Below are positions 17,614 through 64,000 of a stretch of DNA of 64,000 nt, piece by piece; position 1 is the first letter of the stretch; each line of letters opens with the position of its first letter. A program made the translations under genes and the position numbers. Where the stretch lies: contig JAMJFQ010000001.1 in assembly GCA_023544605.1 (NCBI GenBank), positions 6,410 to 70,409 on the forward strand, read 5' to 3'. The DNA comes from ANME-2 cluster archaeon. Its GTDB lineage: Archaea > Halobacteriota > Methanosarcinia > Methanosarcinales > Methanocomedenaceae. The notes below the pieces were generated by a model that was given only the letters and a program-made list of their open reading frames with translations, was not told where the DNA came from and ran no database searches.

Positions 17614-17639
17614 GTAAAAAAACATGTGGTGAATTAAAT

Positions 17640-23004: not shown

Positions 23005-23898
23005 ATGATACCTTCACCAGCGATCAAACAACAGTCAGACCTGACAATTCTCATACCATCATCCCTGACATCAGAGACAAGGGATGAGAGGATAAGGACA
23101 TACAAGGTCGGCCAGATCGCCAGGGCGGCATCGGTGTTTCGGGTCAGTAAGATAATCATCTACCGCGACCCCCAGTTCGATGATAGCAGGTTCATTGACC
23201 TGCTGTTGAGATATGCAGAAACTCCACAGTATCTGCGAAAACATCTATTCCCGCTCCAGAAGGAACTTAAGTACGCCGGAATATTACCTCCGCTGCGTAC
23301 TCAACATCATCCAAAAGCATCAAGATCATCTGATCTCAGCGATGGAGAATTCCGCGTTGGGGTCGTGGTCCCCGGACCAAAGAAGAGCGAGAAAAAAGTC
23401 GGATCTGACGCAGGCACATGGGTCGATATCGGAATCGATAGCCCGGTTCCCATCAAGTCCTCCCTTCGGGGGGTGCAAATGGGCAAGCGTGTTAATGTCA
23501 GGATCTTTTCGCGACGACCGATACAAGGTGAACTTGTAGAAACGGACGACATCCCTCTCTATTGGGGATACCGAACAATAGTGGAAAATAGCCTTGCAGG
23601 GGCACTGGATAACATATCCAGACAGGATACCCTGATGTTGGCCACCTCACGAAAGGGAAAGGTACTTGATACCCCAGCCCTCGAGGAATTGGGCAGACAG
23701 GTGAGGTTAAAATCACATACTGTTGTGGTATTCGGATCTCCCAGTGAGGGCGTGGAGTCTATATTAGCACGAGATGGCATAGACCTCTCAAAATTTCAGT
23801 GTGAATCACTGAATACCGTACCCGGTCAGGGCACAGCAACAGTACGGACAGAAGAGGCCGTATGGGTGACACTGTCTCTGTTGAACCTGGTCAGGTAG
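23005..23898 (+). CDS. SPOUT-superfamily putative RNA methyltransferase (DUF171 / Methyltrn_RNA_3)
   Basis: 297 aa: LTILIPSSL, YKVGQIARAASVFRVSKIIIY, ETPQYLRKHLFP...AGILPPLRTQHH. The position directly upstream of rpl3 is typical in archaea. Confidence 0.8.
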   Translation: MIPSPAIKQQSDLTILIPSSLTSETRDERIRTYKVGQIARAASVFRVSKIIIYRDPQFDDSRFIDLLLRYAETPQYLRKHLFPLQKELKYAGILPPLRTQHHPKASRSSDLSDGEFRVGVVVPGPKKSEKKVGSDAGTWVDIGIDSPVPIKSSLRGVQMGKRVNVRIFSRRPIQGELVETDDIPLYWGYRTIVENSLAGALDNISRQDTLMLATSRKGKVLDTPALEELGRQVRLKSHTVVVFGSPSEGVESILARDGIDLSKFQCESLNTVPGQGTATVRTEEAVWVTLSLLNLVR

Positions 23899-45588: not shown

Positions 45589-46212
45589 TTAATCAATCCC
45601 GACTTTAAGATCGATCTTGTCAATAATTTTATTGATTGACTCCTGCTCAAGCAACAGGAGCAGGTTTATGCTAATAACATTTTCCGCTATCAATAATTCA
45701 CTTTTGACCGTAAGCGCATAAACTGTCTCTTGATTTAGTTTCAGGATAGAGTCCTGAGTAATTGCTCCCATCATATCTATTGTTACCTGGGGTGCTGAAG
45801 GGATGATGGTAATGTTGAGCAAATTACTTATTATACTGATATATGACCCGCATAAAATATTGCTCAACTCGCCCAGGCAAGAATATCCAGTAGGACTTGC
45901 TACGAATTCATCGTTAATATCTTTCTTGAGCATAGAACAAAGATGTTCCCTGGCCAGTTCAAGAGGTATCAGTGTTAGCAAACTCCCATCCAGATCCACT
46001 TGGAGTTCGTGATGAATACCCACAACGAGTGTCCCAGGGTCACCCAGCAGATACTGTATGTCATCCAGGGGCAGGAAGAATATATCACTAAATCTGACGT
46101 TCACCTTCCGGTCCAGTAAACGGGACAGGGAGGTGGCAGCGTTCCTGCTGCTGAGCCGTCCCATTCTATCCATAAAAGATGTTTGTTTTTCAGTTAATTG
46201 CAACGTTTTCAT
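45589..46212 (-). CDS. cheC: CheC-family CheY-P phosphatase
   Basis: 207 aa. The second site SCLGELSNILCG fits S/DxxxExxNxxxG. The first site (DRMGRLSSRNAA) is degenerate. Confidence 0.75.
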   Translation of the reverse strand: MKTLQLTEKQTSFMDRMGRLSSRNAATSLSRLLDRKVNVRFSDIFFLPLDDIQYLLGDPGTLVVGIHHELQVDLDGSLLTLIPLELAREHLCSMLKKDINDEFVASPTGYSCLGELSNILCGSYISIISNLLNITIIPSAPQVTIDMMGAITQDSILKLNQETVYALTVKSELLIAENVISINLLLLLEQESINKIIDKIDLKVGID

Positions 46213-46231
46213 TTTTTACCTCGATATTTGG

Positions 46232-48310
46232 TTATAATAATGTATTAAGCAGAGAATTAATATCCAGTATCAATGCAACCGTTCCACTCTTAATGATAGT
46301 GGCACCTGCAAATCCCGGAAGACGCCCCAGGGACCGCCCTAATGATTTTATCACCACTTCTTGCTGACCCACCAGTTCGTCAACCATCAATCCAACAAGT
46401 CGTTCTTCATGTTCCACAATGACCACAAAGTAGTTGTCATCAGAAAGGTTGCTTTTTGCCTCAAAAAGTTCACTCAGCCTTACCAGCGGAATAACTTTTT
46501 CTCTTATGAGACAGGTCTCTTTTTTATCAACCATTTTTATCTGGTCTTTGTGAATTTTGATAGACTCAAACACGTTATTGAGCGGTAGCACATATATCTG
46601 GCCAGCCACCTTCACTACAAGACCCTTAATGATGGCAAGAGTCAGGGGTAATTTCAACTTCAAACGTGTCCCTTCACCTGGTGTGGAATAGGTTTTAATG
46701 CTGCCACCTAACCGTTCGATATCTCTCTTGACCACATCCATTCCCACCCCCCTGCCTGATATGTCAGAAACTGTTGCTGCGGTGCTGAATCCTGGTAGGA
46801 ATATTAATGAGACCAATTCATCATCGCACATAGCAGCGGCTTCATCTTCTGATATCACTCCTTTTGATAGAGCGGATTTCATTACTATATCTGGATTGAT
46901 GCCTGCGCCGTCATCCGATATTTCAATGATTACATGGTTCTTTTCACGACTGGCCTTAAGTTTCACGATCCCTTCATCAGATTTTCCAGCAGCCAATCGC
47001 TCTTTTGGCATCTCGATACCATGGTCAATTGAATTTCTTAAAATGTGTACCAGAGGGTCATTTATCCCATCAAGTACCGTTCTGTCCAGTTCAATATCTC
47101 CGCCTTCCACCACAAGTTTGACCTTCTTACCACGGCTTCGGGACAGATCACGGATAATACGTGGATATTTACTAAAAATATGGTCAACAGGAATCATCCT
47201 TATTGACATTATATCTTCCTGCAATTCCTCTACTATCCGGCTTAGATGGCCCACTGATTCTGCAAGTTCTGGACTATCGTACTTTGATATGGTATGCTCA
47301 AGCCCGACCTTGTTGATCAACAGTTCACCCACGTGATTCATCAAAATATCCAGTTGGTGGATATTGACCCTGATGTTCTGAATGGTCAGAGTAGGTGCAG
47401 CTGCCTGATTTACAGGTATTTTATTCAGGGGAGTATTTTCTGTTACCTGTACCACTGGTGGAGTAACACTTTCCTGGGCTACCTCCTCGATGTCCAGGGA
47501 ATCCAGGTCGAACTCTTCCGTTTCATCCTCTTTCTCACCTTCAAATATCTTGATTTCAACATCAGAGATCTCAGAAACCGCAAGGGCGCTCTCTTTGAGA
47601 ATATCTCTATCGGCATTAGATGCCAGTATTACATGAAATGTTCCAGGATTTGTCTCCTTGATGGTTGTCTCGGGCGGGTAGACTGCAATTTTGTCACCGA
47701 ATTTTTCAAGGTTACGTATTACAATAGTGGCCTTGGCAGACTTAAGCCCGCATCCCGCGTCAATTGTGACGGTTATTTTATATACATTTTCACCAGATTC
47801 AACAGCTTTGGAAGCGCACCTTAATTCATCTATACTCAGTTCGATCTCGCCAATTTTATCATCATTTTTTTGAATCCCACCGTTTTTTTGAATCCCGCCA
47901 TTTTTTTGAACGCCACCATTGGTTTGTGTTTTATCCAGGACCGACACAAGTTTTTCAATTAATTCTTTTTGTTCAATTATGTCTTTATTTTCTGCAATAG
48001 CTTCTATCATGGATTCAATGACATCAAAACTTTCAAAAATCACATCCATGATCGGCTGGTCAATATCTATCTCTTTATTGCGTATCTTATCAAGCAGGTT
48101 CTCCATTTCATGTGCCAGATGGGCCACTTCATTATACTCCATTGTGGCAGAATTACCTTTTATGGTATGAGCGGCCCTGAATATCTCATTGATCAGGTCA
48201 TTGTTCCCAGTATCCTGTTCAAGTTCAACAAGGGAACGATTCATATTCTGGAGGTGGTCCCTCATATCATTGATGTATATATCCTTGTATTCTTCAAGGT
48301 CATTACTCAT
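46232..48310 (-). CDS. cheA: Chemotaxis histidine kinase CheA
   Basis: 692 aa: HPt AAHTIKGNSATM, N box HILRNSIDHGIE, G1 DDGAGI, G2 GRGVGMDVV, C-terminal CheW-like domain. Confidence 0.93.
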   Translation of the reverse strand: MSNDLEEYKDIYINDMRDHLQNMNRSLVELEQDTGNNDLINEIFRAAHTIKGNSATMEYNEVAHLAHEMENLLDKIRNKEIDIDQPIMDVIFESFDVIESMIEAIAENKDIIEQKELIEKLVSVLDKTQTNGGVQKNGGIQKNGGIQKNDDKIGEIELSIDELRCASKAVESGENVYKITVTIDAGCGLKSAKATIVIRNLEKFGDKIAVYPPETTIKETNPGTFHVILASNADRDILKESALAVSEISDVEIKIFEGEKEDETEEFDLDSLDIEEVAQESVTPPVVQVTENTPLNKIPVNQAAAPTLTIQNIRVNIHQLDILMNHVGELLINKVGLEHTISKYDSPELAESVGHLSRIVEELQEDIMSIRMIPVDHIFSKYPRIIRDLSRSRGKKVKLVVEGGDIELDRTVLDGINDPLVHILRNSIDHGIEMPKERLAAGKSDEGIVKLKASREKNHVIIEISDDGAGINPDIVMKSALSKGVISEDEAAAMCDDELVSLIFLPGFSTAATVSDISGRGVGMDVVKRDIERLGGSIKTYSTPGEGTRLKLKLPLTLAIIKGLVVKVAGQIYVLPLNNVFESIKIHKDQIKMVDKKETCLIREKVIPLVRLSELFEAKSNLSDDNYFVVIVEHEERLVGLMVDELVGQQEVVIKSLGRSLGRLPGFAGATIIKSGTVALILDINSLLNTLL

Positions 48311-48876
48311 TGCGAATTCACCAACTCGATAAGCTTGTCGGTAATAGCCTCGGGTGATAACACATAATCCACATGGCCTGATTCAATGGCATTTCTCGGC
48401 ATATCTTTGGCAATACAGCTATGTTTGCTCTGTGCAATTGTGATGCCACCTGCATTTTTTATAGCTTCGATACCCTTAGTACCATCAGCTCCTGCTCCCG
48501 TGAGGACAACTGCTATGGATTGGTCCCCATACTCTAAAGCAGCGGATTCCATGGTAATGTCAATGGACGGTTTGACATGATGTCTGGGTGGGCTATCTTT
48601 CAGTATTATTCTACCGTGTTTTATTGTCAGGTGTTTTTCCGTGGGCGCTATATATACAATCCCGGGCTTTAGCATCTCCATATGCTCCCCCTCTTTCACT
48701 ATGATTACACTTTTATTTTGAAGGGTTTGGGCAAGTTGTTTGCTGAAATTAGCTATTATATGCTGTATAACTACAATGGGAACAGGGAAATCATGAGGCA
48801 GTTTGGGTATAATATTTTTCAGTACCGTTGGGCCGCCGGTTGATGCTCCTATTACAACAACTGAAATCATGGTCAC
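48307..48876 (-). CDS. cheB: Chemotaxis methylesterase CheB, catalytic domain only (no receiver domain)
   Basis: 189 aa beginning directly with ISVVVIGASTGGP. Catalytic Ser (GASTGG), His (VVIQHI) and Asp (GAGADGTKG) contexts are present. Only 24 nt separate it from the cheY stop. Confidence 0.85.
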   Translation of the reverse strand: MTMISVVVIGASTGGPTVLKNIIPKLPHDFPVPIVVIQHIIANFSKQLAQTLQNKSVIIVKEGEHMEMLKPGIVYIAPTEKHLTIKHGRIILKDSPPRHHVKPSIDITMESAALEYGDQSIAVVLTGAGADGTKGIEAIKNAGGITIAQSKHSCIAKDMPRNAIESGHVDYVLSPEAITDKLIELVNSQ

Positions 48877-48900
48877 AGTATGCCGTTATTATTCAAAAGA

Positions 48901-49260
48901 TCACAGGAGTGCTTTGTTTATGATCTCTATTATTGTCTTTTCATTGAAAGGTTTCACAATAAAATCTTTTGCACCGGCCATTATAGATTCCATTACCAGT
49001 TTCTGTTGGCCCAGTGCACTTATCATCACTATGCGTGCATTCGGGTCTTCGGACCTTATGGATTTTACTGCCTCGATACCCGTGGTTTTTGGCATCACAA
49101 TATCCATGGTAACCAGATCAGGTTTGAGTTCCCTGTACTTCAGGACAGCTTCAACCCCGTCTACCGCTTCTCCGATGACCCGGTGACCATTATTAGATAG
49201 GATATCTTTCAATAGCGAACGAATAAAATCAGCATCATCTACGACCAATATATCTGCCAT
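48901..49260 (-). CDS. cheY: Chemotaxis response regulator CheY
   Basis: 119 aa single REC domain: ILVVDDADFIR, DLVTMDIVMP (phospho-Asp), IVKPF. Confidence 0.9.
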   Translation of the reverse strand: MADILVVDDADFIRSLLKDILSNNGHRVIGEAVDGVEAVLKYRELKPDLVTMDIVMPKTTGIEAVKSIRSEDPNARIVMISALGQQKLVMESIMAGAKDFIVKPFNEKTIIEIINKALL

Positions 49261-49290
49261 GTATTTTCCTCATATTGAGTTATTAAACTA

Positions 49291-49782
49291 TCAGGTATTT
49301 ACTGTTTCCATTTCTTCCTTAATTTTTATCGTTTGCGCCAATTCAAGGTCGCTCAGTATTTTTTCAAAGTCAAGAAGGATCAATATTCTATCATCGATTT
49401 TACATATACCTTTCAGATACTCCTGGGTTTGAGCATGTTTGATGGAGGGAACACTGACAATCATGTCCAATGATATCGTTTTCACTTCGTAGACCGAATC
49501 AACAACAGCACCGAAAGGTTCACCCTGCAGGTCGATAATAATTATCCTGTTCGCATCGTTTTCCAACGGTTCCATTTCAAAACGTTTGCGCATATCGATC
49601 ACTGTGGTGATCTGTCCTCTCAGGTTGATGACACCTTCAACAAAATCAGGCAGTTTTGGTATCCTGGTAATTTCTACCATACGGATAATCTCCCGTACAC
49701 AGGAAATATCGACGCAGTACTCCTCACCACCCAGACTGAAAATGACAACCTGCACCTCTTGGGATCCAACGTGTTCGGTCAT
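49291..49782 (-). CDS. cheW: Chemotaxis coupling protein CheW
   Basis: 163 aa: VVIFSLGGEEYCVDISCVREI...GVINLRGQITTVIDMRKRF. Confidence 0.9.
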   Translation of the reverse strand: MTEHVGSQEVQVVIFSLGGEEYCVDISCVREIIRMVEITRIPKLPDFVEGVINLRGQITTVIDMRKRFEMEPLENDANRIIIIDLQGEPFGAVVDSVYEVKTISLDMIVSVPSIKHAQTQEYLKGICKIDDRILILLDFEKILSDLELAQTIKIKEEMETVNT

Positions 49783-49794
49783 GTGAACTACCCT

Positions 49795-51834
49795 TTATGA
49801 TACTTTAAACTTGCTTACCGATTCTTGCAGATTATTAGCAAGCTGGGCCAGTTCCTGGGCAGAGGAGGTCAACTCTTCCATGGATGCAGTCTGCTCCTCG
49901 GTTGATGCAGCTGACTCTTCAGTGGAATTCAGGTTATCGTCCACGATTGACGCCATGCGGTCCATTGCATTTACCACATTATCAGTATTGACTTTTTGCG
50001 CTTCTACAATATCGGTAATACCTTTAATCCTGGTTGCGGTTTCATTCACTGCTTCGGAAATGTTCTCCAGCAGGTGCAATGCGTTGCTGGTCATTTCAAT
50101 ACCTTCGGCAGCCACGGAAGTACCCACTTCAGTATATTTTACCGCATTGTTCGTATCTTCAGAGATTTCTTTTATAAGGGCATCGATCTGTTCAGCGGCC
50201 TTCTTTGACTCTTCGGCAAGGTTCCTGACCTCAGCTGCTACAACAGCGAATCCGCGCCCCTGTTCACCGGCCCTGGCCGCCTCGATGGCAGCATTGAGTG
50301 CAAGCAGATTGGTCTGGTCGGCAATTGAAGTGATAACGTCCACGATACTGCTGATCTTGCGTGATTTCACTCCCAGTCCTTCAACAGCAGATGCAGAATC
50401 AGCAAGTTTTTCTTTAACCACTTCAAGTTTATCCATTGCTTCCTTGGCTGCTACACTACTCGTATTTGCCATTTCGTTGGTATGCTCTGAGAACTCCTTG
50501 ACCTTGTCCACAGTACTGGAGATCTCATCAGTGGTCTGGGAGAGCCTGACAAGTTCCCTTGACATGTTTTCTACTTCTCTTGCCTGGTCATTGGCACCCT
50601 GTGCAATGAGCTGTATTTTTGAAGATACCTGCTCGGTTGTAGCACTAAGTTCCTCACTGGACGCTGCCAGTTCCTGGGCTGTAGAGCCAACCGTAATGGC
50701 AACATCCTTGATGTTGGTGATTATTTTCTTGATATCTTCTTTCATTTTGATAAATGTCTTTGCCAGGTCACCTATCTCGTCATTGCTGGCAACGTCAATT
50801 TTATGTGTGAGGTCTCCCTTTGCGATATGATTAACATGGTTTCCAAAGTCAGATATAGATCTAATTACTCTCTGTATGATCCCTAACATTAACATAACCA
50901 GTCCCAGCACCAGTAAAGTGGCCAGTGCAACCATAATTATTGACATCCTGATATTGTTTTGGACTTTATCTTTTATGGTCAACTGTATCTGGTTATTAGA
51001 GGAAAGAATATCATCAAGATTCATGTGTATCCTTTTTTCGTTCGAACCAAGTTGGTACAATAACTCAGATTGTGCAATATCATTTTCTCCTAACTGTTCG
51101 TTTAAGGTTACGACCTGACTAAAAATGATTGAATTCTGATTGGTTAACTGAATCAGTTGATCTTTACTATTATCGTCAAGATCGGATGCTGAAATGTCTG
51201 TTTTAATCGATGATATAAGATTTTCAACTTTCTGTGCATTGGTATTTGTGGGTTCGAACAAATATTGGGATTCAGATGACTGTAATTCCAATATTTTATT
51301 ACATAGATCAGGTATATTAAGTGACTTTGTAAATGCCAGCATCTCGTTAGATTTTGTAATCATCTGGCCGCCAAGACCAGTATTACTATTACCGATATCT
51401 TCTATTATAACGATACTTGAATCATGCATATCCATGATTTCCATAGCAATTTCTTCAAAATATTTTTGAGAAGACAACAGATTGTTGGCGGCGTTTTTAT
51501 CCTCAATTATATCGACATAAGATACTATCTGTATCTGATATGATTCAATATTTAACAGACTTTCCTGGAAATCCTGCCGGATCTGCTGCCTTGTTGGATA
51601 ATCGTCTACAAGTAAATATTTATGGATCATTATGATACAATGATTGACCTCATCATGTGTTTTATATGCTATTGATGAGAGGGGCCACCTAATTTCAAGG
51701 ATTTCGTCCACATTATCCTGCATGGTAATAATATTATATACCGAAATAGTACCTATGATTGCCATTAATACGGCAAATGCCAAAAAACTTGAAACAAGTG
51801 TTTTTTTAATAGTCATCCGTTTAGTATCACTCAT
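49795..51834 (-). CDS. Methyl-accepting chemotaxis protein (two TM helices, ~270-aa outer domain, HAMP, signalling domain)
   Basis: 679 aa: HAMP (DEIGDLAKTFIKM) and the highly conserved hairpin LLALNAAIEAARAGEQGRGFAVVAAEVRNLAEES. Confidence 0.92.
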   Translation of the reverse strand: MSDTKRMTIKKTLVSSFLAFAVLMAIIGTISVYNIITMQDNVDEILEIRWPLSSIAYKTHDEVNHCIIMIHKYLLVDDYPTRQQIRQDFQESLLNIESYQIQIVSYVDIIEDKNAANNLLSSQKYFEEIAMEIMDMHDSSIVIIEDIGNSNTGLGGQMITKSNEMLAFTKSLNIPDLCNKILELQSSESQYLFEPTNTNAQKVENLISSIKTDISASDLDDNSKDQLIQLTNQNSIIFSQVVTLNEQLGENDIAQSELLYQLGSNEKRIHMNLDDILSSNNQIQLTIKDKVQNNIRMSIIMVALATLLVLGLVMLMLGIIQRVIRSISDFGNHVNHIAKGDLTHKIDVASNDEIGDLAKTFIKMKEDIKKIITNIKDVAITVGSTAQELAASSEELSATTEQVSSKIQLIAQGANDQAREVENMSRELVRLSQTTDEISSTVDKVKEFSEHTNEMANTSSVAAKEAMDKLEVVKEKLADSASAVEGLGVKSRKISSIVDVITSIADQTNLLALNAAIEAARAGEQGRGFAVVAAEVRNLAEESKKAAEQIDALIKEISEDTNNAVKYTEVGTSVAAEGIEMTSNALHLLENISEAVNETATRIKGITDIVEAQKVNTDNVVNAMDRMASIVDDNLNSTEESAASTEEQTASMEELTSSAQELAQLANNLQESVSKFKVS

Positions 51835-51931
51835 TATATCCCCTCAGATATCAAATAGTTCATTTTTGCCTAAATATAATAATGAATAAGTATAATAATA
51901 ATCAGTATTTAAACTTATCCCACTTGAAATG

Positions 51932-52116
51932 CAAGAAAATCCTCCCTTCGGTCGGATTAACTTGAGTACATAATCTTATAGATTATATACAACAAGAAAA
52001 TCCTCCCTTCGGTCGGATTAACTTGAGTACATAATCTTATAGATTATATACAACAAGAAAATCCTCCCTCACGGTAGGATTAACTTGACTGCATAAAGTT
52101 ATACTTTATGTACTAT
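51932..52116. repeat. Three tandem 61-bp units in the mcp/cheR divergent intergenic region, each with two palindromes
   Basis: Units start at 51932, 51993 and 52054. Units 1 and 2 are identical. Unit 3 differs, yet both inverted repeats (AATCC...GGATT; ATAATCT-TAT-AGATTAT vs CATAAAGT-TAT-ACTTTATG) remain self-complementary. Confidence 0.9.
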
Positions 52117-52136
52117 AAAAAAAGAGCATTATCATC

Positions 52137-52976
52137 ATGACCGAGCAGGACCGTCTACTCACACTCAAAAAAATAATATTGGATAAATTGAATTTTGATC
52201 TGGGGCAGTATAAGGAAAGTTATATTGAACGGAGGGTCAACACCAGGATTAACCTGACCCATACGGGTAACCTTCATGAATATATCAAGCTGCTGGAAAA
52301 AGACCAGGCAGAACTCATGAACCTGATGGATTCACTTACCGTGAACGTGACCAAATTTTTCAGGAATATTGAGACCTTTGAGACACTGGAAAAAGACATT
52401 ATTCCAAAAATAATAAAGAACAAGAATAACAGTTCCAGGGATATAATAAAAGTGTGGAGTGCAGGCTGTTCTTCCGGTGAGGAATTATATACGCTGACCA
52501 TTTTATTTCTTGAGGCATTGGAAAAATCGGGAAAACAGTATAAGTTATTGGTCCAGGGCACTGATATTGACCGAAAAAGCCTCACAAAAGCCAGGATTGG
52601 CAGATACAGGAGCGAAAATGTAAAGAGTATCCGAAAAGATCTGCTTGAGAAATATTTTGAAAATGATGGAACCTATTACCATGTTAAACCTCACGTTAAA
52701 GAGCATGTAAAGATCAATCATCTTGATCTTAGTTCTGACTTTGATAGATTAAGTATTACGTATGAATTGATCTTATGCAGGAACGTGGTGATATATTTTA
52801 ATAAAGATGTGAAACAGGCTCTATTTATGAAATTTTACAATATGCTGCAAAAGGACGGTTTTCTGGTACTGGGTAAGAACGAATCCATCACAGGTGATGC
52901 TTTATGTCATCTGGAAAACGTGAACATTTCAGAACGCGTGTACAAAAAGACCCTGCACGGCAAGATCACAGACTAA
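52137..52976 (+). CDS. cheR: Chemotaxis protein methyltransferase CheR
   Basis: 279 aa: ...TVNVTKFFRN..., VWSAGCSSGEELYTL (SAM motif), ILCRNVVIYF. Confidence 0.9.
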   Translation: MTEQDRLLTLKKIILDKLNFDLGQYKESYIERRVNTRINLTHTGNLHEYIKLLEKDQAELMNLMDSLTVNVTKFFRNIETFETLEKDIIPKIIKNKNNSSRDIIKVWSAGCSSGEELYTLTILFLEALEKSGKQYKLLVQGTDIDRKSLTKARIGRYRSENVKSIRKDLLEKYFENDGTYYHVKPHVKEHVKINHLDLSSDFDRLSITYELILCRNVVIYFNKDVKQALFMKFYNMLQKDGFLVLGKNESITGDALCHLENVNISERVYKKTLHGKITD

Positions 52977-54376
52977 ACATCAATCTTCTTTAAATCTTTC
53001 ATCGTCAAAGACCCACTTTCCAGGAATGTTGGGTCAATAGATATCATCAGAATATTCTTGTTCTTTATGGTGTTGGCCTTAAGCTCATCAAAAAAACCCT
53101 CTATGATGCCGACACTATTGGTTTCAACAAGATATTCGGTGTTGTCTATGAACAACATGACATTGTTGACCTTATCATAATATGATTGAATGACCTTTGC
53201 AATTTTTGGGACATTTACCGTGCACACACAATTGGGGATCTTTACTTCCTCGGTGGTCAACCAGACTACTGGCATTTTGTCATTACCCACCAAATTCCTA
53301 ACTTCATCGGGATGCTTTCTTGTAACACATAATCCTTTGAATCCCCTTTTGTTCATGTATTTAAATATTTCAAAACGTTTCTCATCATTTGCATCAATGA
53401 TCATGTAATTAGTTCCCGGTTTCAGATCGTATTTGTAACCCCTGATCTTAATGTCAGTAAAGATTACCAGGAACATTGTGAATTCCATCTGGTCAATGAA
53501 ATAGCTGCCTTTGACTATATAAGCCTGGGAAACGGGTTCACTGAACACAACGGATTCCATTTTTATTGCCAGCGTATCCTGATCAACATTCTCTGGCGCA
53601 TCGAAGGTGATCTGTGTATCAATAAGGTCGCTGAAAGTGCTCAGGAATGAGTTAATAAAGACATTTCCCATTTCATTAAAAACTGAATGGACCACATCCT
53701 CATGTCCTGATACATCTTCTCCCATTAATGTCCCCACAACCTCAAGGGCGGATTGTTTTGGTATGAGGAGGGCGGAAGAGCCTACATTGGTACCTGAAAG
53801 ATTATAATTTACACCGATACATTGTGTGCCGATATAGCCAGGTATCTCAGAGGGTCTGATGGCCCTAAAATCAGATATGGAGACCTTTACATTCCCGTCT
53901 ACCATTTTAGATAATGCTTGTATACCCCTTAAAATGCCGTTCTTGATAAAATCCTTCAGGATGGTGCGGTCTGAGGTAATATCATGGCGAACCTCATCAA
54001 GCGCAGTACTTTGTAAGCATTTGTTTGCTACACTTTTGATCTTGTCTTTGTCAAAAGGTTTGGTGATATAATCCGAAGCACCTGCCTCAATAGCCTCTGA
54101 AACGCGAAAATCCTGGACATCAGCGCTGCACACAACGATCTTAGCACCGGAATCCTTGTTAATAATGTCTTTTATCGCTGAGAGCCCATCCTTTTCAGGC
54201 ATGACAAGATCCATTAAGACCAGGTCCGGTTTGACCTCGAAGTACTTTGCAACGGCATCGTTCCCATCTATTGCTTCTGTGACCTGGTGTCCCATTTCAA
54301 GGAATATATTTTTAAGCATCGTTCTGGTGAGAATAGAATCATCTGCAACTAATACCTTAGCCATTTTATACCTCAA
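52973..54376 (-). CDS. Three-domain protein: CheY-like receiver + CheC-like domain + DUF835-like C-terminal domain
   Basis: 467 aa. REC: VLVADDSILTR...DLVLMDLVMP...YITKPF. Middle: CheC-like (SVFNEMGNVFINS near the S/DxxxExxNxxxG pattern). C-terminus: GTNYMIID...GFKGLCVTRKHPDEVR...PVVWLT...MLFIDNTEYLV matches my memory of DUF835. The probable ATG is at 54364. The 3' end overlaps cheR by 4 nt. Confidence 0.7.
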   Translation of the reverse strand: MRYKMAKVLVADDSILTRTMLKNIFLEMGHQVTEAIDGNDAVAKYFEVKPDLVLMDLVMPEKDGLSAIKDIINKDSGAKIVVCSADVQDFRVSEAIEAGASDYITKPFDKDKIKSVANKCLQSTALDEVRHDITSDRTILKDFIKNGILRGIQALSKMVDGNVKVSISDFRAIRPSEIPGYIGTQCIGVNYNLSGTNVGSSALLIPKQSALEVVGTLMGEDVSGHEDVVHSVFNEMGNVFINSFLSTFSDLIDTQITFDAPENVDQDTLAIKMESVVFSEPVSQAYIVKGSYFIDQMEFTMFLVIFTDIKIRGYKYDLKPGTNYMIIDANDEKRFEIFKYMNKRGFKGLCVTRKHPDEVRNLVGNDKMPVVWLTTEEVKIPNCVCTVNVPKIAKVIQSYYDKVNNVMLFIDNTEYLVETNSVGIIEGFFDELKANTIKNKNILMISIDPTFLESGSLTMKDLKKIDV

Positions 54377-58233: not shown

Positions 58234-59391
58234 CTATTCCACAAACGGATTATCGTATTCAAGTATGGCCTGTGCTACCTCTTCCCTCATCAGGTCGGGG
58301 GGTGGCACCTGTCCACTTAGTAGCAGGTCCCTCATTTTGGTGCCACTGAAATTAACGATTTCTTTTTCCGAATGCGGGCAAGTCTTATCACTGGCAATGC
58401 TGGTGCACTTCTTGCAGTAGAAGAATGAGCGGAAGAAGATGGGTTGGATATCCAGGTCATCGAACTCGTTAAATATCTCATGAGCTGCAAAAGGATGGTA
58501 GTAATCACCTACACCTGCATGGTCCCGGCCCACTATGAAATGGGTACATCCGTAGTTCTTGCGGACAATGGCATGGAAAATGGCCTCCCTGGGACCTGCA
58601 TAGCGCATCTCGGTCTGGAAGATGGACATGGCAGCCCTGTCATGAGGGAAGTAGTTGTCCAGCAAAGCTGCATAGGAATCCAGTATTACATCATCCCTGA
58701 AATCCCCGCTTTTCTTCTTTCCTATCACGGGATTAATGAACAACCCATCAGTGATAGTAAGTGCAGATTTCTGGACATATTCATGACCCAGGTGGGGGAC
58801 ATTGCGTGTCTGGAAGCCGGCTATAGTATTCCAACCCTTTTCCCTGAACAGGGCTCTTGTCTGGGCTGGTTTTAGGGCATAGTCTGAATAAGGGGTCTCT
58901 ATCTCATTTATCAGGTCGATTGTCCCTCCCAGCAGAAGTTCATTCATGTCATTGGTCAATGCTACACCAGGATGGGTGGCATCATTTGTACCAAAAACAT
59001 TTTGGGAATGGATCTCCGTGTCGAATCCATATATTTCCTCTATGTGCAGTATTGCTACAGCGACTCCATGGTGGTCCAGCACAACATCTTCCCCCGTAGA
59101 TATCCTGCCTGCGTCCTCCCCGGAGATGTCCAGCACGATGGGTATGGTCCATGGCAGACCGTTTGAAAGCCGTTTTAATTCCAGTACATTCAGATAATCG
59201 TCTTCTCCCATGAAACCTTCCAGAGGGCTGAACAGTCCGCTGGCTATATTCTCAAGTTCCTTAGCCCTGTCCAGACTGATACTGATGTTTGTCATTCCAG
59301 GGATCTGTTCCAGGACCTTTTGTTTTTCTTCCTGATCAAGGATTCTGTTGATTAGTTTTCCACCATGGGGTTTTATCTGATTAATATTCAT
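58234..59391 (-). CDS. sat: Sulfate adenylyltransferase (ATP sulfurylase)
   Basis: 385 aa: FQTRNVPHLGHEY (QxRNxxHxxH) and HFIVGRDHAGVG (GRDHAG). Confidence 0.9.
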   Translation of the reverse strand: MNINQIKPHGGKLINRILDQEEKQKVLEQIPGMTNISISLDRAKELENIASGLFSPLEGFMGEDDYLNVLELKRLSNGLPWTIPIVLDISGEDAGRISTGEDVVLDHHGVAVAILHIEEIYGFDTEIHSQNVFGTNDATHPGVALTNDMNELLLGGTIDLINEIETPYSDYALKPAQTRALFREKGWNTIAGFQTRNVPHLGHEYVQKSALTITDGLFINPVIGKKKSGDFRDDVILDSYAALLDNYFPHDRAAMSIFQTEMRYAGPREAIFHAIVRKNYGCTHFIVGRDHAGVGDYYHPFAAHEIFNEFDDLDIQPIFFRSFFYCKKCTSIASDKTCPHSEKEIVNFSGTKMRDLLLSGQVPPPDLMREEVAQAILEYDNPFVE

Positions 59392-59551
59392 CTGTAAGCT
59401 CCTTTTTGATTGTCTTTAATTAGGTATTATTATATGGTATCTGGTTTTAAGGCAAAATAGTGCACTCGATCAAATCCTGACAATATGGCATAACGTGGAG
59501 TAGTATACATAACGTTTTAAATAATCAATTTTATACATAAGTAAGATAAAT

Positions 59552-59574
59552 AATTCTATAAATTCTATAAATTC
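59552..59574 (+). promoter_or_regulatory. Tandem TATA-like 9-mers (AATTCTATA x2) upstream of ORF 59593
   Basis: AATTCTATAAATTCTATAAATTC read directly. The second TCTATAAA is centred about 26 nt upstream of the ATG at 59593, the spacing expected for a leaderless archaeal transcript. Confidence 0.35.
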
Positions 59575-59592
59575 AAATGTAAAGGTCAAGTA

Positions 59593-60057
59593 ATGGATAA
59601 AAAGATCGAACAGGCTGAAATCACATCTATGCTGCATAGTTGTTTCTTTGGGCTTGAAAAAGCTCACAATAAACTAACTGGAAGCGGTCATAAAGCAGTA
59701 GTACCTCAAGTTGCTCGGATGCTTCCACAAATATTAAATGTAAAAGGCGAGCTGAGGTTCGATAATGATAAAACCCTGGATGAAAATCTCCAGGATCTGC
59801 AGGATTATTTCAATAATCCTGAGTTCTTTGAAGAAGTATTGATCGAAAAGATTGACGATAACAGGTATTCTTTCGAGATCAAAGGCTGTTTCCTGGCAAA
59901 GACCGGAGTCCACAGTATTTTAAAACCGGACAGCAACACATGTATGTTAGTTTATATTATTGCATCAATGATAAACATCAAGACAGGCAAGTCATTACGT
60001 ATTTCCAATTCTGTGTTCTCTGAACTTGGCACTAAGACCTCTATTGAAATTGTATAA
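59593..60057 (+). CDS. Hypothetical protein embedded in the sulfate-assimilation cluster
   Basis: 154-aa ORF with no motif confidently assigned. Divergent from sat and convergent with cysH (9-nt gap). Confidence 0.5.
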   Translation: MDKKIEQAEITSMLHSCFFGLEKAHNKLTGSGHKAVVPQVARMLPQILNVKGELRFDNDKTLDENLQDLQDYFNNPEFFEEVLIEKIDDNRYSFEIKGCFLAKTGVHSILKPDSNTCMLVYIIASMINIKTGKSLRISNSVFSELGTKTSIEIV

Positions 60058-60066
60058 TATTTTAGC

Positions 60067-60795
60067 CTATTTTACATTACCTGCATGCAGTCCACATTCT
60101 TTCTTGGTTGCTTCTTCCCACCACCACCGGCCTTCCCGCTCATGCTGGTTGGGAAGCACTGGCCTGGTACAGGGTTCGCATCCGATACTGATAAATCCCT
60201 GTTCATGCAGTTCATTATACGGGACATCGTTGGCCCGGATATAGTCCCATACCTGTTCAGATTTCCAGTTGGCAATAGGGTTGAACTTGACGAGCTGATG
60301 GTCGGCGCTGCCGAATGTCGGGTCGTCCTGTATCACAGGTACGTGGGTCCTGGTATTCGGGCTCTGGTCTTTACGCTGTCCGGTTATCCAGGCATCGAGT
60401 TGTGAAAGTGCCCGTCTCAGGGGGTCCACTTTGCGGGCCTGGCAGCATTCCTGGTGGCCGTCACGGTAGAAGGAGAACAGTCCTTTTTCCTTGACCAGAT
60501 TTTCGGTTTTGTCCCTGTTGGCAAAGAATATCTCGATATCGATGCCATAATGTTCCCGCACGTTCTCGATGAACGTGTACGTTTTTGAGTGAAGTCGTCC
60601 TGTATCAAGGCTGAACACCCTCACATTGTCGCTGAGCTTTGCTGCCATGTCAACCAGTACCACATCCTCAGCACCGCTAAAAGAGATGGCTACACTAGTT
60701 CCATAGGTGTCCAGTGCTAATTTCAGGATATCCTGGGGTGAGCTGTGCTCATATTCGGTTGCAAGTCTTTCAATTTCTGATATTTCCATTATCAT
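60067..60795 (-). CDS. cysH: Adenylylsulfate (APS)/PAPS reductase, thioredoxin-dependent CysH family, Fe-S type
   Basis: 242 aa. C-terminal catalytic KECGLH, plus the Cys pair and CxxC (HQECCQARK ... SIGCEPCT) that mark [4Fe-4S]-containing APS reductases. Confidence 0.85.
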
Positions 60796-61038
60796 TTATT
60801 CACCTTTTTGAATGAGCATCCTGTAATGGGTGCCAAGTTTTTCCAGTTTGATTATGCGGTTTCCATCTTCCTTCACACTGCGAGAGACGTTCCTGACAGG
60901 TTCCCCTGCTTCAAGGGCGACTTCCAGTATCTCTCCAGGGAGCATGTCTTTCAGTTCGAACTTAGTCCTTACCATGTTCATGGGACAGACCTCACCGCAG
61001 GTATCTATTGACCTTGAAGGTGCCATATCTTTATTCAT
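60796..61038 (-). CDS. tusA: TusA/SirA-like sulfur-carrier protein
   Basis: 80 aa: DTCGEVCPMNMVRTKFELKDM (conserved Cys-Pro context). Its start overlaps the sir stop (ATGA) and its stop abuts the cysH start. Confidence 0.8.
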   Translation of the reverse strand: MNKDMAPSRSIDTCGEVCPMNMVRTKFELKDMLPGEILEVALEAGEPVRNVSRSVKEDGNRIIKLEKLGTHYRMLIQKGE

Positions 61039-61898
61039 AACACAGCCTTCCTGAATGTCTCAAGGCCTATACGATTGACTGTATCGCCAATGCGTTCGCT
61101 TTTTGTGGCATTCTCTTTAAAGAACTGGATAGTCTTATCAAGTATCTCAAAGAGCTGTGACTCGTCTACTAATTCGACGAACTTAACAGCCAGCTGTGGG
61201 AACCTCCCTACTTTTCCACCTATGAGGAGGGTATAACCTGTCTTGTTGATCACCCAGGCGTCAGTGGGACAGGATGAGATACAATCGCCGCACAGGTCGC
61301 ATTTCTCACGGTCGAATGTGACAACACCGTCCTCGACAATGATAGCGTCCATACGGCAGATCTCCTGGCACAGACCGCAGCCGGTGCATTCTTCCTTGAG
61401 CCATTTTGGTTCAACGCCACCCATGATGCCGAAATCATTCTCCTGGGGTTTGGCACAGGAGGCGGAGCATCCGGCAATGCTGATCTTGAACTTATGCGGT
61501 ACCCCAGCGGCAAAATATTTTTCATCTATTTTCCGGGCCAGGTCCTGGGGGTTGACAAGACCGCGGGGACAGACAGTGTTGCCCTGGCAAGCAATAATTC
61601 CCCTGATGCGGGGTCCGCATGTACCTTTGCGCAGTCCTGCCTCTGCCATGTCTTCCCTGACAGATTCCACATCATCTAAGTGTATGAACGGTATCTCAAT
61701 ACCCTGACGTGTAGTCAGGTGTATGTGCCCGTCACCGAATTCTTCCGCTGCTTTGGCCAGGGCCCTGAGCTGGTCGGCTTCCACGTAGCCGCCCACGATC
61801 CTCAAGCGGAAGGCAAACTGGTTATGCTGGCGCTGGCGCATGAATCCGCCGGATTTTAACGATTCATAATCAACTTGATCTTGTGACATTATAATCAT
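61035..61898 (-). CDS. Small siroheme-type sulfite reductase-like protein with inserted 2x[4Fe-4S] ferredoxin domain
   Basis: 287 aa. Siroheme/Fe-S coupling motif CQGNTVC (CX5C) ... CSASC (CX3C). Ferredoxin motifs CTGCGLCQEIC and CDLCGDCISSCP. Confidence 0.8.
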   Translation of the reverse strand: MIIMSQDQVDYESLKSGGFMRQRQHNQFAFRLRIVGGYVEADQLRALAKAAEEFGDGHIHLTTRQGIEIPFIHLDDVESVREDMAEAGLRKGTCGPRIRGIIACQGNTVCPRGLVNPQDLARKIDEKYFAAGVPHKFKISIAGCSASCAKPQENDFGIMGGVEPKWLKEECTGCGLCQEICRMDAIIVEDGVVTFDREKCDLCGDCISSCPTDAWVINKTGYTLLIGGKVGRFPQLAVKFVELVDESQLFEILDKTIQFFKENATKSERIGDTVNRIGLETFRKAVL

Positions 61899-62008
61899 CC
61901 ATTAACATTTAGTATATTATTATATTTGCCTGATGTGGCAAAAGTTGCTGTTTTCCAACAATAGATTAAGTTTGTATAAAATTGTACCAGTACTAGGAGT
62001 CGAAAAAG

Positions 62009-62968
62009 TTGTTCAATGTGATACTGGCATATATAGCGGCCCTGTTCATGGGTGTCAATATAGGCGGGAACAATGCCGCAGCTTCGATGGGTGCGGCCTA
62101 CGGAGCTGGTGCCAGGACCAAACGCCAGGCAGTGATATTGATAGCTGTGTTCTCTTTGCTGGGTGCGGTACTTAGCGGTGGTGAGGTCATAAAGACGTTG
62201 GGACATGGTATTGTGCCAGGCCAAAGTATCACTGTTGCAGCTGCCATTATTGCAGTTTCGGCTGCGGGTATCAGTATGTTTGCAGCGAACATGGTGAAAA
62301 TTCCGGTCTCCACAAGCCAGGCCGCTGTGGGTGCTGTAGCTGGCGTGGGAGTCTATGTGGGTGTATTGAACACGGATGTACTGTTCGATATTGCGACCTG
62401 GTGGCTTGTCACACCAATAATAGCCTTTGTTCTTGCGTATATTACCGGTAAATATCTGCATCCTGTTATCCTGATGTGGCTTGTTGACCATGAGTCTGAG
62501 GAGTCGATAAGGAAGTTGATCAACATTCTGCTCACTATATCAGGCTGCTATGTGGCATATTCGGCAGGTGCGAACAATGCCGCAAATGCAGTAGGTCCCT
62601 TCGTGGGGGCAGGCATAATGACTCCTTTCACCGGGGCTGTGGTCGGCGGGCTGGCCATAGGTGCCGGTGCAATGGTTTTGGGTTCCAGGGTGCTTGAGAC
62701 TGTAGGAAAGGGTATCACAGAACTATGCGTAATACGGGCAGTATTTGTGGAGTTCTTGGCTGCAATAATCGTGCATTCTGCATCAGTAATGGGCATCCCG
62801 GTCTCACTGGGCGAGATAGTGACGGCTTCCATAATCGGGATAGGATGTGCCAATGAGGGACTCCTGGCAGCAAGGACTGTCACGGTACAGCGTATAATCA
62901 CCATGTGGTTTGTCTCGCCGCTGGTGGCTGGTATTATTACTTATGCAGCTTTGGTGGTAGTTGGGTAA
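62009..62968 (+). CDS. PiT-family (PHO4) inorganic anion transporter, candidate sulfate permease (CysP-like)
   Basis: 319 aa with a TTG start and about 10 hydrophobic segments. Two PiT signature repeats read GVNIGGNNAAASMG and SAGANNAANAVGP. Confidence 0.8.
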   Translation: MFNVILAYIAALFMGVNIGGNNAAASMGAAYGAGARTKRQAVILIAVFSLLGAVLSGGEVIKTLGHGIVPGQSITVAAAIIAVSAAGISMFAANMVKIPVSTSQAAVGAVAGVGVYVGVLNTDVLFDIATWWLVTPIIAFVLAYITGKYLHPVILMWLVDHESEESIRKLINILLTISGCYVAYSAGANNAANAVGPFVGAGIMTPFTGAVVGGLAIGAGAMVLGSRVLETVGKGITELCVIRAVFVEFLAAIIVHSASVMGIPVSLGEIVTASIIGIGCANEGLLAARTVTVQRIITMWFVSPLVAGIITYAALVVVG

Positions 62969-63144: not shown

Positions 63145-63782
63145 TCAAGGCCCACTTTTCTGAATTAAAAACCCATGATTAAATAAATCTTTTTCTAAGG
63201 CTTCATAATCTTCGAATTTCCTTGAAATAATACGCCAAAATTGTTCGTTATGTTTTCTCTCAATTAAGTGTACCATTTCGTGAAAAAGCACATATTCGAT
63301 CAATATTTTCGGCAAATATTTCAAGAGGATATTAATTTTCATAGATCGAGATTTTTATGTTCTGCGTCGTTTAGTGCGGATAAAATCAGAGACTTTTGTG
63401 TAAATATCCAAGCTTTATGTTTTTCTATTATAATGTCCGGATTCTTGTGATCTTTTGGTAATATAAGTAGTAATTTTCCCGTCTTGAATTCAACCCTTGC
63501 AATCTGTCTAATATGCTCTTCCCCAAGCACGTTTAATTTTCTAACTTCAGGGTGTTGCATAAACTTGCTGGATGGATTGATAAAAAGTATCTTATTTTTA
63601 TTTTCTGTAGATTTATTCTTGTTAAGAATGATAATAGCCCCTGGAGCTCCAGGATTATAGAATAATTTTTCAGGAAGAAGGATAACGCATTCAATTAAAT
63701 CACCTTCAAGCATCTTCGTCCTAATAGCCTTCTCCTTACCTCCCCTAAACAAACACGAAAAATCATTTATTTCTACTGACAC
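63145..63782 (-). pseudogene. Decayed type I restriction-modification remnant: HsdM C-terminal fragment joined to fragments of a DUF45/YgjP-like HExxH metallohydrolase
   Basis: ORF 63339-63782 carries the HsdM C-terminal pattern (IECVILLPEKLFYNPGAPGAIIILNKNK...ILFINPS...LGEEHIRQI), then a DUF45-like N-terminus. ORF 63145-63342 holds only the HExxH end (LFHEMVHLIERKHN). Both are far shorter than intact family members. Confidence 0.65.
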
Positions 63783-64000
63783 TGATTAATAAAGGCAAGA
63801 AGACCAGAGCTACTAAAAATACGGTTAAACCTGCTGCAGCAAAGCTTACATGGAAACCATATGAATCAGCGATCAATCCCCCTATAAAGGGACCTATTGC
63901 AAAACCAAATGAACCGAACAGGTTGAACCCACCCATTGCAGTCCCTCTCTTTTCAGGAACTGTAAAGTCACCTGCTAATGCTGCTGATGGGGGATACATA
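63763..64000 (-). CDS. MFS transporter, C-terminal part only (continues beyond the window end)
   Basis: ...PEKRGTAMGGFNLFGSFGFAIGPFIGGLIAD... followed by a final hydrophobic helix. The ORF is open at the window edge. Confidence 0.7.
   Translation of the reverse strand, partial: MYPPSAALAGDFTVPEKRGTAMGGFNLFGSFGFAIGPFIGGLIADSYGFHVSFAAAGLTVFLVALVFLPLLISVSRNK

Follow-up and report, generated by a model that had tools for sequence, protein, structure and literature searches.

A gene cluster predicted to encode APS-dependent sulfate assimilation in an archaeon of the ANME-2a family

The route of sulfate assimilation described for Methanothermococcus thermolithotrophicus (Jespersen et al. 2023) employs an adenosine 5'-phosphosulfate (APS) kinase, a dissimilatory-type, AprAB-like 3'-phosphoadenosine 5'-phosphosulfate (PAPS) reductase, a 3'-phosphoadenosine 5'-phosphate (PAP) phosphatase and the F420-dependent sulfite reductase Fsr. 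Another set of genes was catalogued by Yu et al. 2018 (PMC6286981). [quoted passage not shown] Methanoperedens BLZ1 (KPQ42275, KPQ42278 and KPQ42279, a span of five successive accession numbers). The authors also cite a bioreactor in which Ca. M. nitroreducens grew with sulfate as its only source of sulfur. For anaerobic methanotrophic archaea (ANME) of the marine groups 2a, 2b and 2c, the same study reports no sat, and its ANME-2a genome lacks the bacterial-type APS reductase and the Group III Dsr-LP. A later preprint repeats that Group III Dsr-LPs are 'not present in marine ANME', and the comparative genomics of ANME by Chadwick et al. 2022 does not treat sulfate assimilation. Here, we analysed a stretch of 64,000 nucleotides (the window) from contig JAMJFQ010000001.1 of an ANME-2 cluster archaeon. 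Within positions 58234-62968 it carries six genes, namely sat, an open reading frame (ORF) of 154 codons that we call orf154, cysH, a tusA-like gene, sir and a gene for a PiT-family permease. This region probably specifies the reduction of sulfate to sulfide by an assimilatory pathway through APS; the family memberships of its proteins, their catalytic residues and the conserved linkage of the genes were directly observed.

The cluster holds the same three enzyme types as the M. mahii and BLZ1 sets. The initial annotation of this region had suggested that its composition might be uncharacterised in the lineage, a suggestion that is overstated in view of the trio in the table of Yu et al. 2018. 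The window differs from those sets in that the tusA-like gene sits between sir and cysH and in that sat stands apart as its own unit, in an opposite arrangement and behind the V4R-like gene orf154. Yu et al. 2018 tabulate the genes without discussing them as a cluster or testing them, and the host of the window belongs to the ANME-2a family. The window shares with M. thermolithotrophicus a homologous ATP sulfurylase, a homologous catalytic module of the sulfite reductase and the same physiological problem, which is to keep sulfite away from methyl-coenzyme M reductase (Mcr). However, the window has a CysH-type Fe-S APS reductase and a Dsr-LP devoid of the F420H2-oxidase domain. As in the APS pathway of bacteria and plants (Pseudomonas aeruginosa, Mycobacterium tuberculosis), its CysH retains all cluster and catalytic cysteines, but its sulfite reductase is a small Dsr-type protein of Group IIId instead of CysJI or Sir, and the host is an archaeon. 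The cysH operon of Bacillus subtilis carries a PiT-type CysP permease, and in the window a PiT-family, CysP-like permease is likewise encoded near cysH.

Profile searches against Pfam and NCBIfam gave strong family matches for five of the six cluster proteins, orf154 being the exception, and all of the genes named in the initial annotation were found in place. The sir (61035-61898, minus strand, 287 amino acids), tusA-like (60796-61038, minus strand, 80 amino acids) and cysH (60067-60795, minus strand, 242 amino acids) genes form a single translationally coupled unit with sir first. The tight coupling reported earlier is visible in the overlap of the sir stop codon with the tusA start codon (ATGA) and in the cysH start, which abuts the tusA stop. 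The earlier inventory of five genes stood, but it had missed a conserved plus-strand gene, orf154 (59593-60057, 154 amino acids). This gene lies between cysH and sat, convergent with the former and divergent from the latter, and sat itself (58234-59391, minus strand, 385 amino acids) is a separate transcription unit outside the sir-tusA-cysH operon. The permease gene (62009-62968, plus strand, 319 amino acids) faces away from sir across a divergent promoter region (61899-62008, assigned to neither strand) that holds a conserved 12-bp element. The region comprises four transcription units.

We then considered the substrate of CysH. The protein matched PF01507 (PAPS_reduct) with an E-value of 1e-55, scored 268 bits against TIGR02055 (thioredoxin-dependent APS reductase), which is above the cut-off of 235, and scored 157 bits against TIGR02057 (PAPS reductase), which is below the cut-off of 254. 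Among solved structures, the APS reductase of P. aeruginosa (2GOY) was 64% identical over 234 amino acids (348 bits, E = 2.7e-103), compared with only 57-87 bits for the PAPS reductases of Escherichia coli, yeast and other organisms. CysH contains five cysteines in total (C117, C118, C206, C209 and C234). The CC pair at 117-118 and the CEPC motif at 206-209 align with the CC and CEPC Fe-S ligands of 2GOY, and Cys234 lies within the catalytic-cysteine motif ECGLH at 233-237. Since the CysH of B. subtilis also binds an Fe-S cluster and is nevertheless listed as bifunctional, the ligand motif alone is no proof of a preference for APS; it is the 64% identity to the structurally and biochemically characterised P. 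aeruginosa enzyme that points to APS as the preferred substrate and to thioredoxin as the reductant. By these comparisons, CysH is a bacterial-type, thioredoxin-dependent [4Fe-4S] assimilatory APS reductase with APS as its predicted substrate, which bears out the earlier reading of its cysteine pair, CxxC and ECGLH motifs as those of the Fe-S APS type. An enzyme with this full APS-reductase signature would not require APS kinase, as had also been proposed.

The gene content of the window was in agreement with that prediction. The Pfam scan covered 46 window ORFs, comprising the six cluster proteins and 40 others, with the ribosomal-protein block at ~23-40 kb left out; statements of absence apply to the window, the remaining genome being outside the analysis. 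No APS kinase was matched among these 46 ORFs, and a six-frame motif scan of the window found no APS-kinase P-loop motif in a credible ORF, so that the reported absence of the enzyme from the window holds within this coverage. Neither the scanned window ORFs nor the motif search yielded an AprAB-like PAPS reductase, a PAP phosphatase or an F420-dependent Fsr. Most likely, the gene for CysH came from bacteria, to judge from the 64% identity to the Pseudomonas enzyme and from the tree of Yu et al. 2018 (PMC6286981), whose account of Methanoperedens and four Methanosarcinales methanogens agrees with this.

The predicted source of APS is Sat, which contains PUA_2 (PF14306) and ATP-sulfurylase (PF01747) domains, with the motifs QTRNVPHLGH at position 194 and GRDHAG at position 288. 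It scored 526 bits against NF003166 (cut-off 387) and only 267 bits against the bifunctional Sat/CysC model NF004040 (cut-off 669), and has no fused APS-kinase domain. Among solved structures, the best match was to a characterised enzyme, the M. thermolithotrophicus ATP sulfurylase (8A8D, E = 3.5e-142). By family, Sat is a homo-oligomeric ATP sulfurylase, and the M. thermolithotrophicus homologue suggests that it would be active as such. The permease carries a PHO4 domain (PF01384, E = 5.5e-58). Its best NCBIfam match was the CysP sulfate-permease model NF053884 (E = 1.6e-85), at 287 bits under a cut-off of 400, and it scored only 16 bits against the PitA model. The divergent pairing with sir noted earlier proved to be kept in seven related loci (L001, L082, L083, L087, L088, L002 and L003), whose permeases are 64-90% identical. 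This conserved linkage to sir and cysH supports a sulfur-oxyanion substrate, and we regard the protein as a putative, CysP-like sulfate importer.

The final reduction would be carried out by Sir, in which we found the domains PF03460 (NIR_SIR_ferr) and PF01077 (NIR_SIR) and two Fer4 motifs. Its closest solved homologue is the C-terminal half of M. thermolithotrophicus Fsr (7NP8, residues 342-609, E = 8.8e-46), followed by Methanocaldococcus jannaschii Fsr (E = 9.6e-42). The 287 residues of Sir align only to residues 342-609 of the 620-residue Fsr, and no F420H2-oxidase (Fsr-N) domain is fused to it. With Fsr numbering taken from the structure paper (PMC10229431), the sulfite-binding residues are kept as R31, R99, K136 and K138 (Fsr R355, R423, K460 and K462), and the 'assimilatory-trait' arginine is kept as R64 (Fsr R388). 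The siroheme ligands, on which the initial annotation had made the assignment depend, are present in the siroheme-[4Fe-4S] motif C104-x5-C110...C144-x3-C148. The sulfite-binding, R64 and siroheme-cluster residues are all invariant across an alignment of 19 homologues. An inserted ferredoxin region contributes two CxxCxxCxxxC motifs (Cys 171/174/177/181 and 200/203/206/210). The Fsr structure paper ties R388 and CX5C-type traits to the complete, six-electron reduction to sulfide (PMC10229431).

Group IIId Dsr-LPs were defined by Susanti and Mukhopadhyay 2012, who called them 'the precursor of Fsr-C'. Sir has the features of this group, namely a siroheme [4Fe-4S] center, a peripheral and an additional [4Fe-4S] cluster, four sulfite-binding arginine or lysine residues, and no Fsr-N. 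We assign it to Group IIId as a predicted sulfite reductase that is homologous to Fsr's C-terminal half and stands alone. The other classes of siroheme enzyme were considered in turn. Assignment to alSir (Group I Dsr-LP) was ruled out, as that class is without ferredoxin domains and Sir has the two-cluster insert. AsrC was rejected on a TIGR02912 score of 175 bits (cut-off 324) and on the lack of adjoining asrA- or asrB-like genes. The aSir class (CysI and ferredoxin-Sir) was rejected on scores of 29 bits against TIGR02041 (cut-off 757) and 41 bits against TIGR02042 (cut-off 732), and on size, its pseudo-symmetric members having ~570 amino acids compared with 287 for Sir. Long called uncharacterised, Group IIId proteins have a physiological function that is still debated. 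In a preprint, Day et al. [quoted passage not shown] By class description, that protein is like the window Sir in its siroheme-[4Fe-4S] center, two extra [4Fe-4S] clusters, four sulfite-binding residues and absence of the F420H2-oxidase; unlike Sir, it was studied for sulfite stress and has not been reported in a sat/cysH cluster.

For ANME-2, it has long been hypothesised that the ANME cell carries out dissimilatory sulfate reduction on its own, and the window does combine a complete sulfate-to-sulfide enzyme series with multihaem cytochromes, but the types of enzyme present effectively exclude this reading. CysH is of the thioredoxin-dependent assimilatory type and not AprAB, and none of the components Qmo, DsrAB, DsrC and DsrMK was found among the window ORFs scanned. 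The assimilatory traits of Sir, R64 and CX5C, are those linked by the Fsr study to complete reduction without a DsrC-type acceptor, and for ANME as a whole Yu et al. 2018 likewise concluded against a dissimilatory role (PMC6286981). A related idea, that the TusA-like protein serves Sir as a DsrC-like co-substrate, is less likely, as Sir has R64 (equivalent to R388) and CX5C instead of the DsrB-type motif CxnCCx3C.

The TusA-like protein itself matched PF01206 (E = 4.9e-18) and fell below the equivalog cut-offs of the TusA and YedF models (NF001423, 16.5 bits compared with 78; NF008242, 48 bits compared with 79). Its relatives in the PDB are TM0983, YedF, TusA and YeeD. Judged by these scores, it is a member of the SirA/YedF/YeeD family in a distinct subgroup and no orthologue of E. 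coli TusA or YedF. Cys18-Pro19 lie within a VCP motif that shows no variation among the 58 homologues encoded next to sir. We take Cys18 to be the counterpart of E. coli TusA Cys19, which serves as a lead only. An additional cysteine, Cys14 (DTCGEVCP), precedes the active-site Cys18 by four residues in only five copies, all of the ANME-2 group (the window, L001, L082, L083 and L087), and none of the 53 bacterial homologues encoded beside sir has it (DITDVVCP); Cys14 and Cys18 are a possible CxxxC redox or polysulfide site.

The pairing of sir with a tusA-like gene extends well outside the archaea. Of 90 loci, 58 carry such a gene on the same strand and no more than 300 bp from sir, and 53 of those come from bacteria, chiefly Clostridia, with Sir orthologues that are 44-50% identical. 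One bacterial locus was annotated in full, that of Roseburia porci (L057, 4180-13865), and a second (L049) in part. In the former, sir-tusA stands amid genes for an AprA-like protein, an AprB-like ferredoxin, CysD, CysN and O-acetylhomoserine sulfhydrylase, together with ThiF, JAB protease and thioredoxin-reductase-like genes. In the latter, as far as annotated, the pair is likewise linked to assimilation genes including O-acetylhomoserine sulfhydrylase. The AprAB-like reductase of this R. porci assimilation cluster is reminiscent of the PAPS reductase of M. thermolithotrophicus. Iyer, Burroughs and Aravind 2006 described, as type 4e, neighbourhoods of SirA (TusA), sulfite reductase, PAPS-reductase-family protein, ATP sulfurylase and ThiS/E1/JAB genes. 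The clostridial relatives (L057) fit that description. The window resembles it in having a SirA/TusA-family gene directly beside the sulfite reductase and together with sulfate-activation genes, but differs in being without a ThiS-like carrier, E1 and JAB protease; in Methanohalophilus (L088), ThiS and ThiF are nearby.

Because sir-tusA is the most widely conserved unit in this comparison, the cluster could be read as a module for the detoxification and assimilation of sulfite or thiosulfate, with Sir and TusA as its core, a permease importing an oxyanion other than sulfate, a TusA-like protein handling thiosulfate-derived sulfane sulfur, and sat and cysH as accessories. M. maripaludis mutants in the Group IIId Dsr-LP lose fitness with sulfite as well as with thiosulfate, the TusA-like protein YeeD works in thiosulfate uptake (PDB relative 8K1R), Group III Dsr-LPs of Methanoperedens are upregulated under sulfide stress in what was interpreted as sulfite detoxification, and oxyanion transporters are promiscuous. 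However, cysH is co-translated with sir-tusA, and sat adjoins the unit here and in L087 and L088, an arrangement that would be unexpected if APS were irrelevant. Moreover, the CysP sulfate permease is the only meaningful family match of the permease. We consider this explanation very unlikely, and favor assimilation of sulfate by way of APS.

The conservation of the whole cluster was examined among the archaeal relatives. Each of Sir, CysH and Sat has a 100% identical counterpart among NCBI proteins labelled 'MAG: ANME-2 cluster archaeon' (MAG, metagenome-assembled genome), and the next relatives, at 85-94% identity, come from metagenome contigs and 'ANME-2 cluster archaeon' MAGs. One near relative, JAMJFR01, carries an accession from the series assigned to an Fe(III)-reducing ANME-2a enrichment from a terrestrial mud volcano. 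The identical six-gene order PiT|sir-tusA-cysH|orf154|sat is found, at 73-94% identity, on an ENA metagenome contig (L087), and PiT|sir-tusA-cysH without adjoining sat occurs in three ANME-2-group MAGs, two named 'ANME-2 cluster archaeon' and one 'Methanosarcinales archaeon'. Methanohalophilus sp. RSK (L088) carries PiT|sir-cysH-sat in a single block whose proteins are 54-71% identical to those of the window, and Methanococcoides and Methanolobus have PiT|sir-cysH. In a scan of genome contigs, the best among the matches listed was 54% identical. In Methanoperedenaceae (L084, 9134-10729; L085, 1005-2600), a cysH that is 75% identical stands beside the gene for a Dsr-LP with only 37% identity to the window Sir, and neither tusA nor PiT is present at these loci; the sulfite-reductase partner of cysH has apparently been swapped between lineages. 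Gene order is thus conserved in ANME-2-group MAGs, Methanohalophilus, Methanococcoides and Methanolobus, and the pairing of sir with cysH extends to Methanoperedenaceae. Part of the Methanosarcinales share the cluster. The flanks of the Methanohalophilus locus (L088, 1-13591), which comes from a cultured methanogen, contain two TusA genes, ThiS, ThiF and a PALP (CysM/CysK-like) enzyme, as well as genes for a cysteine-desulfurase-like aminotransferase, a DUF169 protein and a thioredoxin-like protein; with these, the block makes up an extended sulfur island that is amenable to experiment.

A related MAG contig (L086) encodes a Sat that is 85% identical, with the same downstream neighbours as the window sat (genes for LPG-synthase-C-like, GNAT, aIF5A, agmatinase/arginase, F420 ligase and CheR proteins), and has FdhD on the other side of sat, where the window has the reductase cluster. 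This suggests a rearrangement that joined the reductase module to sat, the module having been brought next to sat in the window genome or separated from it elsewhere. Gene remnants beyond the permease point the same way and fit a rearrangement scar. The remnants, at 63145-63999, consist of an N6 DNA methylase fragment of 147 residues (matching profile positions 186-271 of 311), a 65-residue YgjP-like tail and an apparent truncated ORF for a membrane transporter (MFS-like). A recent foreign island was also considered and rejected, as the GC content of 0.42-0.48 across 58-63 kb is the same as in the remaining window and gives no compositional signal.

The position of sir bears on another possible use of the sulfite. 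Sat and CysH might supply it for the biosynthesis of coenzyme M (CoM) by way of cysteate or sulfolactate, with Sir (and TusA) acting as a safety valve for the excess. Yu et al. 2018 raised this possibility for APS reductases of ANME and methanogens, since CoM synthesis needs sulfite, the source of which is unknown (PMC6286981), and Susanti 2012 drew the same link for Dsr-LPs; making sulfide from sulfate would also seem needless in sulfidic habitats. However, sir heads the coupled operon of cysH itself, which suits a flux through to sulfide, and neither the window nor any related locus that was examined contains a CoM-biosynthesis gene. In addition, the orthologous sir is linked to the assimilatory O-acetylhomoserine sulfhydrylase gene in L057 and L049. 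We judge supply of CoM synthesis to be an unlikely primary role.

Taken as a whole set, the genes make the transporter-to-sulfide route of the initial annotation plausible. In the assimilatory route that we favor, sulfate would be imported by the CysP-like PiT permease and converted with ATP to APS by Sat. The Fe-S CysH would reduce APS directly to sulfite and AMP in a thioredoxin-dependent reaction; since it would act on APS itself, APS kinase, PAPS reductase and PAP phosphatase would not be needed. The Group IIId Dsr-LP, which is equivalent to Fsr's catalytic half and has no F420H2-oxidase half, would then reduce sulfite to sulfide with six electrons, probably delivered to its two extra clusters by ferredoxin or by some other Fe-S donor. 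The co-translated TusA-like protein would most likely take up the reduced sulfur as a Cys18 persulfide and relay it towards biosynthesis, a role suggested by the conserved gene pairing alone. The tight coupling of sir, tusA and cysH would prevent the build-up of sulfite, an inhibitor of Mcr.

Several points weigh against this interpretation. ANME-2a habitats are usually sulfidic, so that sulfate assimilation is seemingly unnecessary there. The activity of every enzyme in the cluster is predicted by comparison of sequences, as are the substrates, the reductants, the role of the TusA-like protein and the function in vivo, and the permease match to CysP is the sub-threshold one given above. The window yielded no thioredoxin (by six-frame motif scan) and neither a cysteine synthase nor a ThiS/E1 partner. 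Enzymes of the Fsr type also reduce nitrite, in some cases preferentially, and Susanti and Mukhopadhyay 2012 noted that Dsr-LPs expressed at native levels give methanogens no sulfite tolerance. Finally, Jespersen et al. 2023 found that Methanocaldococcus infernus has the genes and yet does not grow on sulfate, concluding that 'genetic potential is not enough'.

After assigning the enzymes, we considered how the cluster might be regulated. The product of orf154 gave no sequence match in Pfam, NCBIfam or PDB, either alone or as a profile; such profile matches as appeared came from the AsnC-type domains of longer, fused family members. The gene is in the same position in L087, at 73% identity. 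Its family is small and unannotated (55 representative clusters), with C99, H107 and C117 as invariant columns and H15 nearly invariant, and the longer members are fused to winged helix-turn-helix/AsnC, DeoR, MarR, CBS or receiver domains. An AlphaFold2 model had a mean predicted local distance difference test score of 93.5, and Foldseek retrieved H-NOX, Bet3 and YslB at a probability of ~1 with TM-scores (template modelling scores) of only 0.45-0.55. A sensor-like protein with an H-NOX/V4R/Bet3-like predicted fold, responding to a small-molecule ligand or to redox state, is therefore a plausible reading of the model, and orf154 is a candidate regulator of the cluster. A conserved element, GCAACTTTTGCC, lies at 61937-61948 (minus strand) directly upstream of a TATA-like box before sir. 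The consensus GCAAC[AT]TTTGCC occurs at the equivalent site upstream of sir in L001, L002, L003, L082, L083 and L087, and a variant of it in Methanohalophilus (L088). The carriers are ANME-2-group MAGs (ANME-2 cluster and Methanosarcinales), one metagenome contig, Methanococcoides and Methanolobus, and Sir identity among the six archaeal relatives that share the element goes down to 52%. As 0.73 matches are expected by chance in the window, a single match is not significant, and it is the conserved position that identifies GCAAC[AT]TTTGCC as a candidate operator for a sulfur-responsive regulator.

A more far-reaching scenario can be built on these features. Some methanotrophs of the ANME-2a family, in the mud-volcano-related lineage, might live on sulfate as sole sulfur source by a minimal route of Sat, Fe-S CysH and a stand-alone Group IIId Dsr-LP. 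The TusA-like protein with its Cys14-Cys18 CxxxC pair would capture the product as persulfide, so that neither sulfite nor free sulfide is released near Mcr, and control would be exerted by the V4R-like orf154 and the GCAAC[AT]TTTGCC element. To our knowledge, the sequence of Sat, Fe-S CysH and stand-alone Group IIId Dsr-LP has in no archaeon been shown in use. We put this scenario forward as a tentative and, in its entirety, rather doubtful one.

Elsewhere in the window, two adjacent multihaem c-type cytochrome genes are found at 16978-18746 (plus strand), and an Rfam 'L4-Archaeoglobi' ribosomal-protein leader match (23405-23501) stands at the opening of the ribosomal operon. A full chemotaxis cluster at 45589-54376 encodes CheA, CheB, CheW, CheC, MCP and CheR, and a receiver-CheX-DUF835 fusion protein is encoded at 52973-54376. 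This remaining content (multihaem cytochromes, ribosomal-protein operon and chemotaxis cluster) fits an ANME-2 archaeon.

The gene set as such is already catalogued in related methanogens and methanotrophs. Given the trio of Yu et al. 2018, the in vivo evidence of 2024 for a Group IIId protein and the neighbourhood of sulfite reductase and SirA (TusA) recognized in 2006, it is not new, and our finding is a modest extension rather than a new pathway. The new part is small, and the gain over Yu et al. 2018 (PMC6286981) is incremental: the window and the related ANME-2-group MAGs extend the known distribution of the set to the ANME-2a family, and in the window the set is consolidated next to sat with a tusA-like and a sensor-like gene. 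The gene context supports an assimilatory role for Group IIId Dsr-LPs. Since the same enzyme set is catalogued in cultured Methanohalophilus, and related sets in Methanococcoides and Methanolobus, it is directly testable there. With its five or six genes, the set is also compact and could be moved into model methanogens. A working cluster would free part of the ANME-2a family from dependence on a sulfate-reducing partner's sulfide for anabolic sulfur, in keeping with the presence of these archaea in mud volcanoes that are rich in iron and poor in sulfide. It would also represent a second and simpler way, after that of M. thermolithotrophicus, in which archaea combine sulfate reduction with methyl-coenzyme M reductase chemistry.

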